This document shows positions 2,590 through 40,118 of a stretch of 64,000 bases of DNA, one piece after another. The stretch is taken from contig JBAYHR010000002.1 of assembly GCA_041666045.1 (NCBI GenBank), positions 18,773-82,772 on the forward strand, written 5' to 3'. Source of the stretch: Minisyncoccota bacterium. GTDB lineage: Bacteria; Patescibacteriota; Minisyncoccia; Phycocordibacterales; UBA9973. The notes below the pieces were generated by a model. The model saw only the letters and a program-made list of their open reading frames with translations. It ran no database searches and had not been told where the DNA came from. Position 1 is the stretch's first letter; each line of letters begins with the position of its first letter. A program made the translations under genes and the position numbers.

Positions 2590-2626
2590 AAAAAAGAACC
2601 TCACTTACGTGAGGTTCTTTTTGTCT
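2590..2626. terminator. Bidirectional intrinsic terminator hairpin (agaacctcac-ttac-gtgaggttct) with A/T runs
   Basis: Perfect 10-bp stem with a flanking A-run 5' and T-run 3'. Lies downstream of the 2642 minus-strand gene. Confidence 0.7.
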
Positions 2627-2641
2627 TTTATAGTATTATTT

Positions 2642-2878
2642 TTATTGTACAGAATTTATATCTACATCAACAGTTGAATCTACAGAATTAAGATCTTGTT
2701 CAAGAGTGTTTAATTCGTCAGTTACGCTAGCAGTGTCTATTGGGGTAGGCGTTTCTGGTGGTTTATTTGTTGTGTTTTTTGCATTTGATTGCCAAATATA
2801 CAATCCACCAATTATAAGAATTATTATTACAATAATTGATCCTATTAATGCACCGTGTGATTTTTTTTCTGGTTCCAT
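2642..2878 (-). CDS. Small single-pass membrane protein, hypothetical (start 2878 ATG or 2896 GTG)
   Basis: ORF with one hydrophobic helix (IGSIIVIIILIIGGLYIW) and a polar Thr/Pro-rich tail. Confidence 0.45.
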   Translation of the reverse strand: MEPEKKSHGALIGSIIVIIILIIGGLYIWQSNAKNTTNKPPETPTPIDTASVTDELNTLEQDLNSVDSTVDVDINSVQ

Positions 2879-2895
2879 ATTTGTTTTTAACCGCA

Positions 2896-2924
2896 CTCTG
2901 CCCTAGATGTTATCTAGGGCAGAG
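2896..2924. promoter_or_regulatory. Perfect 13-bp-arm palindrome CTCTGCCCTAGAT-gtt-ATCTAGGGCAGAG
   Basis: Read directly from the sequence. Sits between the stop of the 2966 gene and the start of the 2642 gene. No U-tract on the transcribed strand. Confidence 0.5.
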
Positions 2925-2965
2925 ATTAGTAATTAATTATTAATAATTTTTTAAACTAATTTTGA

Positions 2966-3667
2966 TTAATTATCTGAGTCGTTATCGTTTGAGCCATTAT
3001 TATTATCTCCATCATTATCATTTTCTACTTTATTAGCTTCCATCTTTGATTTTATAGCATCTTTTAAAGCTTTATGCGCATCCTTCAAAGCTTTGTGAGC
3101 TTCCTTAATAAGAGTTTGTGTCTCTTGCGCCAAAGTTCTTAATGTTGTTTTGTCTTCTTTTGAAAGTTGATTTGTTGATCCAGCAAGCAATGTTGTTGCT
3201 TCTGTTATTTTTGCATTGGCTTCAGTTAATTTTGTTTCAGTTATTGCAACAAAAGCTTTTGCAGACGTTGTATCTATTCCTTGTGCTTCAAGTTTGATGA
3301 TACTTGCATTAACTTTATCTTTTAAAGCGCCCATTTTGTCTATTGCATTATTAAATCTTTCTAGAGCTTTTTCTCTTCCTTCAATTCTTGCTTCTTTGAT
3401 TTTTGCTTTAACTCCGTCTTTTTCACTTTTTATGCTTTCTTTTAAAGCTTCCATTTTATTCTCTGCTTCTTCTCTAGCTGCTTCTATTTTATTTTTTAGC
3501 TCTTCTCTAATAACTTCAACTTGTTCTTTTATATCTGGACGTTCTGGAGTTTCTAGAGAATCATTTGGCTGTGTCGCTTCATTTTCATCGTCTTCCGCAA
3601 AAACAAAAGATGTTGAAAATGAAAATACTAATGCGATTGCTAAAAACAAACTTAAATATTTTTTCAT
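2966..3667 (-). CDS. Secreted coiled-coil protein, hypothetical (signal peptide, KEAHKALKDA tandem repeat, D/N-rich tail)
   Basis: N-terminal signal peptide MKKYLSLFLAIALVFSFSTSFVFA. K/E/A-rich heptad-like sequence. Confidence 0.6.
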   Translation of the reverse strand: MKKYLSLFLAIALVFSFSTSFVFAEDDENEATQPNDSLETPERPDIKEQVEVIREELKNKIEAAREEAENKMEALKESIKSEKDGVKAKIKEARIEGREKALERFNNAIDKMGALKDKVNASIIKLEAQGIDTTSAKAFVAITETKLTEANAKITEATTLLAGSTNQLSKEDKTTLRTLAQETQTLIKEAHKALKDAHKALKDAIKSKMEANKVENDNDGDNNNGSNDNDSDN

Positions 3668-3784
3668 AAATTTTTTGCTCTTATGAGCTTATGTTAATTG
3701 ATAATTAATAATTATAATAAAAACTCTGACATTTTTTTATTACAATATATATGACGTTGTCAAAATGCAAATCTTACAGACAAA

Positions 3785-5785
3785 TTATAACAAGAAAGCA
3801 ACGATAAGCAAAGCTACGATGTTTAGAATTTTAATCATAGGGTTTATTGCTGGTCCGGCTGTATCTTTATAAGGATCTCCAACAGTATCACCAGTAACAG
3901 CTGCCTTGTGAGCATCTCCACCTTTACCTCCAAAGTTTCCACTTTCAATATATTTCTTAGCATTATCCCAAGCTCCACCACCAGAAGTCATAGAGATTGC
4001 TACGAATAATCCTGTGATGATTGATCCAACTAAAAGTCCACCAAGAGCAACTGGTCCAAGCAAGAATCCTACTAAGATTGGAACAAGTACCGGGATAAGA
4101 GCGGGTACAATCATTTGTTTAATAGCGCTTGTTGTAACTATATCTACGCACTTTCCGTATTCTGGTTTTCCTTCACCTGTCATAATTCCTTTTATCTCTC
4201 TAAATTGTCTGCGAACTTCGTCAACAACTTTTCCTGCAGTTTTTCCTACAGCTTCCATACAAAGCGCTCCGAAATAATATGGTAGAAGTCCTCCTATGAA
4301 TAATCCAACGATAACTTTTGGATTACTTAAATCAAATTTCATAACTTCTCCAGTGATAGCTTTTATTTCTTCTGTATATGCTGCGAACAACACAAGTGCT
4401 GCAAGTCCTGCAGAACCGATAGCATAACCTTTTGTGACAGCTTTTGTAGTATTTCCAACTGCGTCTAATGGATCCGTAACATCTCTAACTTCTTTTGGAA
4501 GTTCTGACATTTCTGCGATTCCTCCAGCATTGTCTGTGATTGGTCCATATGCGTCGATAGCTACGATGATTCCTGTCATCGAAAGCATAGACATTGCTGC
4601 TACTGCGATACCATAGAGTCCACCAAATTTATATGTAATTAAAATTCCAGTAACTATTGTTATAAGAGGAAGAGCGGTTGCTTTCATTGAGATAGCGAGT
4701 CCTTGGATAACATTTGTTCCATGTCCTGATAAAGATGCTTTGGCGATAGATTTTACTGGTGAGAATTTTGTTGAAGTAAAATATTCTGTAATAACAACAA
4801 GAGCTCCAGTTACAAAAAGACCTGTAAGGGCACAAATAAATAAATCCATTACAGAATAATCACTGCCGTTGTTAGACATTAATAATTTTGTGATAGGGTA
4901 GAAAGCTATTGCCGCAAGAATTCCTGATGCGATAAGTCCTTTGTATAGCGCGCCCATTATATTATTTTTCTTTCCTAATTTTACAAACCAAGTTCCGATG
5001 ATTGAACAAATAATTGCAATACCTCCTATTGCAAGAGGGTATAATATTGCTCCGCTGAAATTTACGAAAAGAAGTGATCCGAGTAACATTGTCGCTACAG
5101 ATGTAACAGCATATGTTTCAAAAAGATCTGCGGCCATTCCTGCGCAATCTCCAACATTGTCTCCAACATTGTCTGCTATAACTGCAGGGTTTCTTGGGTC
5201 GTCTTCTGGAATTCCAGCTTCAACTTTTCCAACAAGATCTGCTCCTACGTCAGCTGCTTTTGTAAAAATTCCTCCACCTAATCTTGCAAATACAGAAATA
5301 AGAGATGCTCCGAAACCAAGACCGATCAATGCTTTAATATCACCTGTGATTGCGTACAGTGTTGATACTCCCAAAAGAGCAAGTCCTACTACTAGAAGTC
5401 CAGTAACAACTCCTCCATTAAAAGCAACACTAAGAGCTTGCTTCAATCCACTTTTTGCGGCTTCTGTTGTTCTAACATTTGCTCTCACTGATACATTCAT
5501 TCCGATATATCCAGCGAGTGCTGAAAGTACTGCTCCTAGAATAAATCCAATAGCTGAATTAAATCCTAAACCAAACCATAAAACAAAGAAAAGAATTATA
5601 GCTATAACTCCAATAGTTTTGTATTGTCTATTTAAATAAGCTTTTGCTCCTTCTTTGATAGCTTCTGCGATAGCTTGCATTTTTGCATCACCGGCATTCT
5701 TTTTAAGAATTGATTTAGTAAGCAACAATCCATAGATGATAGCTACAATAGAACTAATAATTGCAAACAATAAATATATATTCAT
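3785..5785 (-). CDS. hppA: Membrane-bound proton-translocating pyrophosphatase (V-type H+-PPase)
   Basis: Motifs [41 protein letters not shown] and [18 protein letters not shown]. Polytopic membrane protein of 666 aa. Confidence 0.95.
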
Positions 5786-14974: not shown

Positions 14975-16480
14975 ATGCGAGACAAAATTTTTTATTTATC
15001 TTGTTTTGGGTTTGAAATAGGCGTGTTAATCAGTTCATTCTTTTTTGTAAATTTATATTTAATTACGTTAATCAGTATTGTCTTCTTAGGTTTGTTTTTA
15101 TTTTTTTTATTTGTCTCAAAATTAAAATGGTGTATACTTTTTTGTATTTTTATTTTAACTATATCATTAGGAATTTTTAGGTTTCATAATGCAGATAAAC
15201 CAGCTCCTTATGTTTTTGAATCTATAGTTGGAGAGAAAGTTAATTTTAGTGGATTGATAATTGATGAAGTGGATGAAAGAGAAAACAATCAGAAATTAAC
15301 AGTCGAAGTTTTGTCTCCTCAAGGTCTTGACTTGGACTCTTTAAAGGCAAAGCCTTTTCCCGCAAAAACAAAAATTCTTTTAACTGCAGATTTTGAACAA
15401 GAATTTAAATACGGGGATACCATAAATTTTTTTGGAAAACTTGAAAAACCTGAGAATTTTTACACAAACACTGGCAAACTTTTTGATTACATTAATTATT
15501 TACATAAAGATGGGATTTTTTATTTAATAAAAAATCCAACTACGGAAATTATATCTCGTGGTGGTGGAAGTTTTGTAAAAAGAAAACTGTTTTCTTTTAA
15601 AGATAAATTTTTAGATAAAATAAATTTTGTTATACCAGAGCCAGAATCTTTGCTTATGGGTGGACTTATTTTAGGTGAACGATCTTCTTTTGACGAATCA
15701 ATGCGTCAGGCTTTTGTAGATACTGGAACGATACACATTATAGCTTTGTCTGGTTACAATGTGACAATTGTCGCAGAGTGGATTATGAAAATATTTTCTT
15801 TTTTTCCTCGTAATATTTCTTTTAGTTTTGGTATTTTTGGTATTTTACTTTTTGTTGTGATGGCTGGTGGCGCTTCTACTGCTGTGCGAGCAGGAGTAAT
15901 GGCAACCTTAGCGCTTATTGCGCGCGCGACAGGGAGGGATTATGATGTCGCGCGCGCACTTGTGTTTGCTGGTGTAATAATGACGATTCTCAATCCTTTT
16001 GTTTTAGCTTTTGATGTGTCTTTTCAACTTTCTTTTATTGCTACGATTGCTGTGATATTTTTTGCCCCTAAAATGGAAAAATATTTTATGTGGATTACAA
16101 AAAGATTTGGTTTACGCGATGTTGTGTGTATAACTTTTTCTGCTTATCTTTTTGTTTTGCCTTTTATACTTTATAAAATGGGAAATTTGTCTATCGTTGC
16201 ACTGCCAGCAAATATTTTAATTCTTCCATTTATTCCTATTACTATGATTTTTGGTTTTATTACAGGTTTTATAGGACTCATTTGGTCAGTATTTTCAATT
16301 CCTTTTGGTTTTGTTTCTTATTTATTTTTACATTATGAATTATCTATAATTTCCTTTTTCTCACATTTGTCATTTGCGTCTTTTGCAATTCCAAATTTTC
16401 CGTTATTAATTACATTAATAGTTTACACTTATTTTATTTACAGACTTTTTGGAAAAAATATTAAAAAGTTTTTTAACTAA
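14975..16480 (+). CDS. comEC: ComEC/Rec2 competence-channel membrane domain (first part of a split comEC)
   Basis: Polytopic membrane protein with the ComEC signature ...GTIHIIALSGYNVTIV... Confidence 0.8.
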   Translation: MRDKIFYLSCFGFEIGVLISSFFFVNLYLITLISIVFLGLFLFFLFVSKLKWCILFCIFILTISLGIFRFHNADKPAPYVFESIVGEKVNFSGLIIDEVDERENNQKLTVEVLSPQGLDLDSLKAKPFPAKTKILLTADFEQEFKYGDTINFFGKLEKPENFYTNTGKLFDYINYLHKDGIFYLIKNPTTEIISRGGGSFVKRKLFSFKDKFLDKINFVIPEPESLLMGGLILGERSSFDESMRQAFVDTGTIHIIALSGYNVTIVAEWIMKIFSFFPRNISFSFGIFGILLFVVMAGGASTAVRAGVMATLALIARATGRDYDVARALVFAGVIMTILNPFVLAFDVSFQLSFIATIAVIFFAPKMEKYFMWITKRFGLRDVVCITFSAYLFVLPFILYKMGNLSIVALPANILILPFIPITMIFGFITGFIGLIWSVFSIPFGFVSYLFLHYELSIISFFSHLSFASFAIPNFPLLITLIVYTYFIYRLFGKNIKKFFN

Positions 16481-16556
16481 AAATCAAAATATAAAACTTT
16501 TCTGGCGGACAAGACGAAGCCAGTGCCCGCAGGCGAAAAGTTTTATATTTTGATTT
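16481..16556. repeat. Structured element copy A: 21-bp perfect AT-rich stem enclosing a 34-nt GC-rich core (ctggcggacaagacgaagccagtgcccgcaggcg), followed by a T-run
   Basis: Read directly from the sequence. A second copy at 48181-48261 has covarying stems. Confidence 0.8.
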
Positions 16557-16589
16557 TTTATATAAGTGTTTAGATGTTAATATTATCTT

Positions 16590-17459
16590 ATGTTTCAGAA
16601 TTTTAAAAAATATATTTTAGCAAAACTTTTAGTAATTTTTTTTATTGCAACTGTTTTTATTTTTTATATCAGTTGGCAAAACTCGCACAGAGGATTCACT
16701 TTTGCAATGCTTGATGTGGGGCAAGGAGATGCTCTTTTTATAGAGTCTCCGACTGGGATGCAAATATTGTTTGACAGTGGTCCAAATGGAAAAGTTCTAA
16801 GCAAACTTTCAGAGGTTATGCCTTTTTATGACAAAAGCATAGATGCGATAATTATTTCACATCCCGATCAAGATCATATAGGTGGATTTTTAGATGTTTT
16901 AAAAAATTATAAAGTTGGAAAAGTATTTGAATCTGGAACATATAGTGATTCAAAAACTTATCAAAAAATAGAAGAAGAAATTAAAAATCAAAACATACCA
17001 AATATTGTAGTGAAAAAAGATATGAAGTTAGATTTTGGCGGTGGAGTTTTTTTAAATATTTTGTTTCCTGACCGTGATGTGTCTAGTTGGGATACCAATG
17101 ATGGATCAATTGTCGCGCGTCTAACTTATGGTAATACTTCTTTTATGCTCACAGGAGACGCAACGAAAAAAACAGAAGGAATAATTCTTTCAGAAAATTT
17201 ACCAAAAGATTTACAAAGTACATTTTTGAAAGCTGGACATCATGGCTCTCACACTTCTTCGTCTTTAGAATTTGTAAAAACAGTTTTACCTAAATATTCT
17301 CTTATCTCTGTCGGAGAGAAAAATAAATACGGGCATCCGCATAAAGAAACTTTGGATATTTTTTCATCAATCGGCTCTGAAATTTTTCGCACGGATGAAA
17401 AAGGAACAATAGTGATAAAATCTGACGGCCAAAAAGAAATAATTTCATTTTCTAAATAA
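16590..17459 (+). CDS. ComEC C-terminal metallo-beta-lactamase domain encoded as a separate gene
   Basis: MLDVGQGDA...IISHPDQDHIGG...GHHGS motifs with an N-terminal TM helix. Confidence 0.8.
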   Translation: MFQNFKKYILAKLLVIFFIATVFIFYISWQNSHRGFTFAMLDVGQGDALFIESPTGMQILFDSGPNGKVLSKLSEVMPFYDKSIDAIIISHPDQDHIGGFLDVLKNYKVGKVFESGTYSDSKTYQKIEEEIKNQNIPNIVVKKDMKLDFGGGVFLNILFPDRDVSSWDTNDGSIVARLTYGNTSFMLTGDATKKTEGIILSENLPKDLQSTFLKAGHHGSHTSSSLEFVKTVLPKYSLISVGEKNKYGHPHKETLDIFSSIGSEIFRTDEKGTIVIKSDGQKEIISFSK

Positions 17460-39374: not shown

Positions 39375-39377
39375 AAT

Positions 39378-39494
39378 TTGAATTTTCCCCTCCTTGTGGA
39401 GGAGGGGTGCCTAAAGGGCGGGGTGGTGATTTATTAAATTTAGAATTACCACCCCCAACCCCCTCCTTGAAAAGGAGGGGAGTTAAAATACAAA
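39378..39494. repeat. GC-rich three-hairpin repeat, copy 1 (SD/anti-SD-like hairpins cccctcctt-N4-aaggagggg flanking a GGGTGGT...ACCACCC hairpin)
   Basis: 100% identical over ~114 nt to 40005-40118. Confidence 0.9.
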
Positions 39495-39499
39495 ATACA

Positions 39500-39859
39500 A
39501 TGAAAACCATTCATAATATAAAAAAATTATTTTATAGAAGAAAAGAATTAAGAAACAATAGTACTCCTCAAGAAATTTTATTGTGGTTGAAATTAAAAAA
39601 TTCTCAGCTTGGTTTTAAATTTCGTCGTCAGCACAGCATAGGTGGATATATTGCTGATTTTTATTGTCCTTCTAAAAAATTAGTTATTGAAATTGATGGT
39701 TCACAGCATTTTAAAGAAGAAGCAAAAAAATATGATGATATAAGAAGTAATTATTTTGAAGGTCTTGATATAAAAGTTTTGCGTTTTACAAATGGCGAGA
39801 TAAATACTAATATGAGTGGAGTGTTGTTAAAAATAATAACACAATTAAGTAAAAAATAA
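39500..39859 (+). CDS. DUF559-family (Vsr-like PD-(D/E)xK) endonuclease-domain protein (the 39407 upstream extension is a repeat artefact)
   Basis: RRQHSIGGYIADFYCPSKKLVIEIDGSQH...VLRFTNGEI is a typical DUF559 signature. Confidence 0.8.
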   Translation: MKTIHNIKKLFYRRKELRNNSTPQEILLWLKLKNSQLGFKFRRQHSIGGYIADFYCPSKKLVIEIDGSQHFKEEAKKYDDIRSNYFEGLDIKVLRFTNGEINTNMSGVLLKIITQLSKK

Positions 39860-40004: not shown

Positions 40005-40118
40005 GTCGAATTTTCCCCTCCTTGTGGAGGAGGGGTGCCTAAAGGGCGGGGTGGTGATTTATTAAATTTAGAATTACCACCCCCAACCCCCTCCTTGAAA
40101 AGGAGGGGAGTTAAAATA
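40005..40118. repeat. GC-rich three-hairpin repeat, copy 2 (identical to copy 1). It ends 2 nt before the tatD ATG.
   Basis: Direct sequence identity with 39381-39494. Confidence 0.9.

Follow-up and report, generated by a model that had tools for sequence, protein, structure and literature searches.

The two long hairpins in the 64-kb stretch of DNA analysed here (the window, a chromosome segment of about 30% GC) are two copies of a dispersed palindromic repeat, here called F1, which occurs in Paceibacteria (candidate phyla radiation, CPR) and has not been described before. We consider it probable, though by no means certain, that F1 is a family of palindromic mobile elements, non-autonomous and dispersed in CPR genomes of the Paceibacteria type. 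Its copies are tolerated directly behind stop codons and in promoter regions, and essential proteins accept them in frame where a loop is permissive. F1 inverts the usual pattern of small palindromic repeats, as its loop is conserved and structured and its arms are free.

The two copies, A and B, and the genes next to them have the following positions in the window:

14975-16480, plus strand: comEC-N, 501 aa, with DUF4131 and Competence domains; its TAA stop codon is at 16478-16480
16479-16558: copy A, whole hairpin, a long perfect AT-rich stem around a GC-rich core
16479-16501 (16481-16501 without two extra pairs), plus strand: copy A, left arm, which pairs with 16536-16558
16502-16535: copy A, core CTGGCGGACAAGACGAAGCCAGTGCCCGCAGGCG, 34 nt, GGA/CC type
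16502-16535, minus strand: copy A, core on the better-pairing strand, which reads CGCCUGCGGGCACUGGCUUCGUCUUGUCCGCCAG; 7-bp helix and small apical hairpin
16536-16558, plus strand: copy A, right arm (AAAA and GTTTTAT...), followed by a T-run to about 16562
16590-17459, plus strand: stand-alone, membrane-anchored MBL (Lactamase_B) gene downstream of copy A, 289 aa
45913-48138, minus strand: ftsK, its start codon 41 nt from the left arm of copy B
48179-48262: copy B, whole hairpin, a long perfect AT-rich stem around a GC-rich core
48179-48203, plus strand: copy B, left arm, which pairs with 48238-48262
48204-48237, minus strand (the better-pairing one): copy B, core, AAG/TT type
48238-48262, plus strand: copy B, right arm, followed by a T-run

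The arms form 23 consecutive Watson-Crick pairs in copy A and 25 consecutive pairs in copy B, and both hairpins fold far better than shuffled sequences (z from -7.3 to -10.5). The left arm of copy A has a variable outer part, and its inner ATAAAAC and TTTT are semi-conserved in the family. A 16-mer common to both cores occurs twice in the window, where 0.13 occurrences are expected and none of 100 shuffles reaches two. From A to B the cores differ at five positions, GGA becoming AAG (positions 6-8) and CC becoming TT (positions 26-27), with the changes spread over both sides of a single helix: G6-C27 and G7-C26 become A-T, while A8.C25 becomes G8-C25. The initial annotation of this DNA had described two hairpins with perfect arms and one common core, a GG/CC to AA/TT replacement at paired positions and a swap of the inner C/G of AAAA(C/G)TTTT between the copies. 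All of this is confirmed, and the change of A8 to G8, which improves A8.C25, is to be added. A profile search of all fetched sequence found no third F1 copy in the window, where the density is about one per 30 kb.

Copy B is not located at the end of a gene. Its two neighbours are transcribed divergently: ftsK, on the minus strand, whose sense strand is the better-pairing strand of this copy, and an ORF with its ATG at 48327. Copy B is flanked by divergent promoter-like sites, in a region that does not look transcribed, and may never be transcribed. The frame through copy B is open, has no start codon upstream of the core and continues into a 298-aa ORF without a Pfam match (48162-49223; the same in L004 and L022). 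At all three orthologous loci the T-rich right arm, read in this frame, gives a run of hydrophobic residues. The open frame is probably due to chance in T-rich sequence; an N-terminal extension of the 298-aa ORF from GTG 48225 is conceivable. There are no tRNA genes in the 64-kb window.

To see how far the family extends, species-representative genomes and metagenome contigs were scanned, once each, with a 20-base core pattern. Note that the pattern needed an intact central core, so that decayed copies are under-sampled. The core was found at 3 low-GC loci in the genomes and at 18 in the metagenomes; all of these contigs have 26-39% GC, and they are those of Minisyncoccia, Nomurabacteria and related ones. 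Matches on contigs of 57-61% GC (L002, L005, L006 and L012) were discarded as chance matches, as they have no arms. Pattern scans and profile search together give about 25 further F1 copies, all in low-GC Paceibacteria/Nomurabacteria contigs; a count of core copies elsewhere had been proposed in the initial annotation, and the family is clearly not limited to two. Orthologues of copy A are present in L007, L017 and L035, and orthologues of copy B, with similar arms, in L004 and L022. The AAG/TT haplotype of copy B is found in L018, L022, L025b, L026 and L031 as well. A census of host proteins with the F1 peptide, too short a query to be informative, gave 12 candidates in a word-indexed and 1 match in an exhaustive search. 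Over the whole window there were no Rfam matches at the gathering threshold, and permissive scans returned generic long-hairpin matches below threshold. The viral collection held no F1 matches, and a phage origin was rejected on these grounds.

An F1 unit is about 80-100 nt long. Its inner stem is semi-conserved (..TAYAAAWS-TTTT / AAAA-S-TTTTRT..), and the 34-nt core folds as a 7-bp helix capped by a nearly invariant loop. In a gap-free covariation alignment of 24 distinct copies, 20 of the 25 pairs of the outer stem were changed on both sides, as were 3-4 pairs of the apical helix, including 5-28, 6-27 and 7-26. None of 500 shuffles reached the observed values, slid controls paired in about 40-55% of the cells, and RNAalifold, run unguided, predicted the same fold. 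The compensatory changes first suspected from the two copies of the window are thus real. Conservation is highest in the loop, which hardly varies, and drops outwards: 8-12 inner positions of the stem are semi-conserved and distinguish F1 subfamilies, and the outer stem is free.

Two structural assignments were tried and rejected. An H-type pseudoknot of CTGGC/GCCAG with the 4-10/23-29 helix has unfit loop lengths, and in L027 the change of C5 to T is compensated at G28 and not at G18. Known RNA motifs (hammerhead, twister, pistol, hatchet, guanidine-III, preQ1 and group II domain V), did not fit either; the guanidine-III likeness is a fortuitous GGACAAGACG resemblance that is not kept in copy B and is unsupported by Rfam.

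The mismatches on the written strand are mostly A.C, which are G.U on the complement. Cells pair in 95.8% of cases on the minus strand and in 88.9% on the plus strand, and for the ten apical pairs the values are 99.2% and 80.0%, respectively, with much of the signal coming from two nearly invariant positions (counted as independent events, A.C:G.T is only about 2:1). The minus strand gives the more stable RNA in 23 of 24 copies. Among the TsaE alleles described below, helix states with one A.C (N-S, D-P) are common and a G.U on the written strand is almost absent. From these sequence patterns, the folding strand is probably the minus strand of the window. In 14/14 of the loci found by pattern that have a host gene, or an upstream gene of the same orientation, the written (CTGGCGG) strand is the sense strand, which places the better-folding strand antisense to host genes. 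Either the folded form works on the antisense strand, or mRNAs are under selection against the more stable orientation.

Several copies are located in frame inside genes: in the linker of DNA polymerase I (polA; L001 and L010), in a surface loop of TsaE (L008) and in uvrC (L019), where the reading frame differs from that in the other genes. This tolerance is explained by the core being free of stop codons in all six frames. A search with the TsaE of L008 found about 30 TsaE protein clusters, 60-75% identical, that carry the insert at one site (..KNF-LA[DSNT]KTKPV[PLFS]AGENF..), and in the five genes that were fetched it always adds 72 nt. Among the remaining TsaE alleles some lack an insert, a few contain the core in inverted or frame-shifted form, and others carry unrelated GC-rich inserts at this place. 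A neighbour-joining tree of TsaE (140 columns, with the insert masked) mixes the filled and inverted alleles with the empty ones and those with other inserts; its resolution is too low for a count of gains and losses.

In five tsaE copies, the synonymous identity at third positions is 0.90 in the core compared with 0.59 in the flanking codons, and GC3 is 0.46-0.69 in the core compared with 0.14-0.33 in the flanks. The amino-acid changes in the TsaE core (D/N/S, P/S/L/F, A/V, A/T) are those that follow the base pairs. The synonymous conservation and the high GC3 show that the constraint is on the nucleic acid and not on the peptide. Between orthologous tsaE copies the outer arms have diverged fully and are still complementary. 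The core is thus constrained at the nucleotide level, and compensatory change maintains the stems. A conserved peptide was considered, as the frame FLADKTKPVPAGE is open and in phase with the flanking ORFs in several copies; it was ruled out because uvrC and some tsaE alleles use other frames, inverted copies use frames of the minus strand, and the amino-acid changes track the base pairs.

As a separate observation, the TsaE loop has received at least 3-4 unrelated GC-rich inserts, depending on the lineage, for example PLPRGSARRARGSK..PPLRRGG; the alleles concerned are P0031, P0034, P0035, P0042, P0045, P0050, P0051, P0056 and P0091. The PolA linker behaves in the same way. Both sites are insertion hot spots or unusually permissive.

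Copy A begins right after the TAA of comEC-N, and the MBL gene starts at 16590, 33 nt beyond the hairpin (not 35 nt, as given earlier). This arrangement had led to the idea that insertion of the element split an ancestral full-length comEC, an explanation that we now consider practically out of the question. The best 120 ComEC homologues (62-100% identity) are, in 120/120 cases, about 500 aa long and have no fused MBL domain; a protein identical to the ComEC of the window comes from a 'Candidatus Paceibacterota' MAG. In L032, a relative with 78% identity and the gene order recJ-rnhA-comEC_N-MBL-trx as in the window, comEC-N and the MBL gene are split likewise, 24 nt apart, and the element is absent; the same split in element-free relatives had been named beforehand as evidence against the insertion. 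In L033, L034 and L017 sod intervenes between the two genes, and MBL is a separate gene in all relatives examined. Furthermore, the MBL ORF is in a different frame from comEC-N and has its own N-terminal membrane helix. A stop-codon read-through from comEC-N into MBL was rejected as well, as the frame past the TAA closes at 16570 and MBL lies in another frame. The separation of the two genes is the gene architecture of the whole clade, found even without the element, and comEC-N in the window is a complete gene of the type that is universal in the clade. The element does no more than occupy a site between the two genes. Copy A was acquired behind the comEC-N stop codon in the lineage of the window, L007, L017 and L035, and had no part in separating the two genes.

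The same comparison shows what was inserted. The 24-nt spacer of L032 aligns to the part of the window spacer downstream of the hairpin, and the insertion therefore consists of both arms and the core (about 80 nt). L016 contains two units of about 100 nt including the arms, L016a and L016b, which are 95% identical, have unrelated flanks and lie 1.7 kb apart, a recent duplication of the unit. The whole hairpin is thus the unit that is gained or duplicated, and the earlier suggestion of a mobile structured element is borne out by the empty site in L032 and the duplication of the unit with its arms in L016. The second L016 copy is situated about 150 nt after rplL, behind a GC-rich segment ..cccgcgcaagcccaggccgaatgcgggtgccgaataggcacg.. 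(oriented coordinates about 4630-4760) that is probably structured.

Once in place, the copies do not stay unchanged. At the comEC site of L035 the core has been inverted in place, and so it has at the tsaE site in P0025/L028, P0043 and P0026, where P0025 is a near-identical sister of the uninverted P0011. The core can thus flip in place between the arms. Decaying copies are seen in L007, L017, L022 and L027. Two discrete core haplotypes occur at the orthologous ftsK and tsaE sites, combined with all inner-arm types, a distribution that suggests exchange of cores between copies.

A second hairpin family, F2, is present in the window at 45473-45555, between recA and the next gene on the minus strand. 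It has the same architecture as F1: arm-TTTTC TCGGGTCCTCGG (7-19 variable nt) CCAGACCAGCTC GAAAA-arm. In relatives F2 occurs in the RecJ ORF (L032), inverted in the PolA linker (L030), at the N-terminus of TsaE (L010) and in an intergenic site (L027).

Two cases do not fit a simple movement of whole hairpins. In the tsaE allele P0048 (L036) the left arm is kept, identical to that of P0014 at 27/27 nt, and exactly the core and the right arm (60 nt) are absent. In the polA linker, L001 and L010 have an F1 core where L030 has an F2 core, and the left flanks that precede these cores are homologous (FFGNNQKENQKNF vs FFGDNQNSKPENF). Potentially, the mobile unit is only the GC-rich core cassette, and the arms are local sequence; the cassette would enter AT-rich hairpin loops between TTTT and AAAA, or replace the core that resides there, or break repair would copy it in, along with one flank as a fold-back copy. 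The common TTTTC...GAAAA junctions of F1 and F2 and the free combination of the two core haplotypes with the inner-arm types at ftsK and tsaE are in line with such a cassette. On the other hand, both arms are missing in the empty relative at the comEC site, L016a and L016b have their arms in common, and the arms of one subfamily (L011, L014, L020, L023 and L025a) are still alike, as if inherited and then diverged. Since L010 has an F2 remnant beside its F1 copy, the polA site may simply have been hit twice. We regard a mobile core without arms as quite unlikely. In L036, a bAvd and RVT_1 gene pair lies at 2598-3963, 1.2 kb downstream of the left-arm-only tsaE allele; such a pair is typical of a diversity-generating retroelement.

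Several results count against mobile hairpins, too. We were not able to identify a transposase or any other partner protein for F1, and in about 280 kb of fetched loci there was no longer element bounded by F1 halves. L032 and the window form the one clean empty/filled pair, at which no target duplication is evident, with AT-rich flanks that mask repeats of 2-3 nt. The left-arm-only P0048 does not fit a model in which whole hairpins come and go. Finally, the core conservation inside tsaE, in proteins that are 60-75% identical, exceeds what a dead selfish insertion should show, and would call for either host-level selection or repeated core exchange.

Host-level selection would be central if F1 were a cis-acting RNA module kept by the host, with mobility being secondary. 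The hairpin on the antisense strand would then stop or destabilise antisense transcripts, intergenic copies would be two-way terminators or processing sites, and the apical module would be a platform for protein binding. The initial annotation had already considered a family of bidirectional terminators, and the anatomy of the intergenic copies agrees with this: they lie 0-40 nt after stop codons (those of dut, trmH, rnpA, rplS, rplL, pyk and others) and consist of a hairpin with a T5-T7 run and a mirrored A-run. Some are located between convergent genes, in L017 (comEC-N/sod), L020 (hsp20) and L025a (jag). Core and pairing are conserved over deep divergence, also at synonymous sites of tsaE, and G.U pairs accumulate on one strand, which is what one expects of RNA. 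However, the in-gene copies have no good U-tracts, and none on the antisense side; copy B, between its divergent promoter-like sites, is maybe untranscribed; and in L003 only about 10 nt separate the hairpin from the ATG of argS, which precludes efficient termination in the sense direction. A consensus terminator scanner did not call F1 copies, their loop being longer than 8 nt. Termination thus fits the anatomy of the intergenic copies; copy B and the copies inside genes are not at 3' ends, and it cannot be the general explanation of F1.

An RNA module also has to account for copies that are gained, lost, inverted and decayed among close relatives, and for neighbour genes without any functional theme. 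While comEC, ftsK, polA, uvrC and dut at first resemble a DNA-metabolism regulon, the other neighbours (rnpA/yidC, jag, rplS, rplL, pyk, hsp20 and trmH) led us to reject it. We consider an RNA module selected by the host possible and on the whole somewhat unlikely.

Alternatively, a chromosomal protein might recognise F1 as double-stranded DNA or as a cruciform, for instance in DNA uptake, in segregation or in setting replication polarity. The strongly uniform orientation relative to the gene strand would be explained in this way, and copy B and L025b, the latter just upstream of dnaA, lie in regions that do not look transcribed. The covariation from GGA/CC to AAG/TT within one genome is, on the other hand, unexpected of a duplex operator, and the strand asymmetry of the wobbles argues for a single-stranded form. 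L025a and L025b lie on opposite sides of the dnaA region in the same orientation, which speaks against replication polarity, and one copy per 30 kb or so is far rarer than uptake sequences. A duplex site is, in our view, very improbable.

For the mobile palindromic elements that we favour, the following mechanism can be proposed. A trans-acting protein would recognise the folded single-stranded form, that is, the core and the inner stem, and for this reason conservation would fall off with the distance from the core. The relevant strand would be the one antisense to host genes. Exchange of cores between copies would bring the same two haplotypes to orthologous sites, and the intergenic hairpins would probably double as a two-way barrier to transcription.

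The closest known relatives in kind are, by analogy, the Rickettsia palindromic elements (RPE), reportedly those of Ogata et al. 2000, and other small bacterial palindromic repeats. Like F1, RPE are short palindromic repeats that fold into a long stem-loop, occur both between genes and as in-frame fusions in conserved protein genes whose products tolerate them, are present as several families together in reduced, AT-rich genomes, and have no known transposase, with target duplications absent or unclear. In this habit, which defines a functional class, F1 agrees with RPE. It differs in its phylum, in its use of at least three reading frames and both orientations, and in having a conserved GC-rich structured loop with variable arms at a length of about 80-100 nt. 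RPE, in contrast, are 105-150 nt long, conserved along their whole length and reported to encode a conserved peptide (PMC2229807, PMC10969869). Given the different phylum, length and architecture, homology between F1 and the RPE families is unlikely; the likeness to these and other small palindromic repeats would be one of kind (PMC2229807, PMC10969869).

MITEs and terminator-like repeats (Correia/NEMIS, ERIC, RUP, SPRITE) resemble F1 in being non-autonomous hairpins of about 100 nt, mostly at gene ends; some of them are terminators or RNase III sites, and some are open in frame (PMC2229807, PMC10969869). A classical MITE is defined by terminal inverted repeats of conserved sequence, by the duplication of its target (TA or other) and by its parent IS (PMC2229807, PMC10969869), whereas the termini of F1 are its least conserved part, with no duplication or parent element seen: the outer arms of paralogous copies share no sequence, and only the inner 8-12 nt are semi-conserved. 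The RAYT-mobilised REP/BIME/REPIN sequences are, like F1, palindromes abundant at gene ends, extragenic and thought to be recognised as single-stranded hairpins; REPs have a conserved stem and a GTAG/CGTC head and are absent in frame from genes (PMC3733652). F1 has variable stems, lacks the GTAG/CGTC head and does occur in frame, and no RAYT-type gene came to notice on the fetched contigs. Integron attC sites combine conserved R/L boxes at the base of an imperfect hairpin with a variable loop, and F1, on the contrary, has a conserved loop and a variable base.

Palindromic or GC-rich structures inside and between the genes of very AT-rich genomes are known from mitochondria as well. The GC clusters of yeast mitochondria are GC-rich structures between and inside coding sequences of a very AT-rich genome. 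The mitochondria of Nematomorpha have coding palindromes, in which the protein-encoding hairpin arms are kept paired (PMC6649704). Both cases differ from F1 in being organellar and unrelated in sequence, and the Nematomorpha palindromes, furthermore, are neither dispersed as repeats nor built around a common conserved core.

In the tiny genomes of CPR bacteria, very few mobile elements have been recognised. At least two, probably four, families of small hairpin repeats are now seen in them, at gene ends and in frame in polA, tsaE, uvrC and recJ. Such repeats inflate and diversify "conserved" marker proteins, make genes look split and produce long open frames upstream, and they will confuse gene callers and phylogenomic alignments. 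A GC-rich core that hardly changes, synonymous positions of an essential gene included, on a stem that drifts implies that there is a specific recogniser, be it a protein or a nucleic acid that functions in folded form; the strand asymmetry and the in-place inversions are handles for finding it. A further-reaching idea, which we find unlikely, is that CPR genomes host interchangeable structured GC-rich core cassettes (F1, F2 and others), which some enzyme would recognise on the strand antisense to the host gene. Such cassettes may home into, invert in and replace one another in AT-rich hairpins, also those in essential genes. If this were true, the conserved loop with free arms would represent a new mechanism of mobility or a new class of structured antisense RNA, and not a MITE.

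The window contains one more kind of hairpin repeat. Two identical units of about 116 nt, at 39377-39500 and 40005-40121, have three GC-rich hairpins each (CCCCTCCTT..AGGAGGGG, GGGGTGGTG..CCACCCC and again CCCCTCCTT..AGGAGGGG) and end in a Shine-Dalgarno sequence and an ATG. They precede a DUF559 endonuclease-like ORF (39501-39859) and tatD (40122-40966), respectively, which looks like the insertion of a DUF559 gene cassette with duplication of the tatD leader. The same type of hairpin is also found in frame in the PolA linker of L028.
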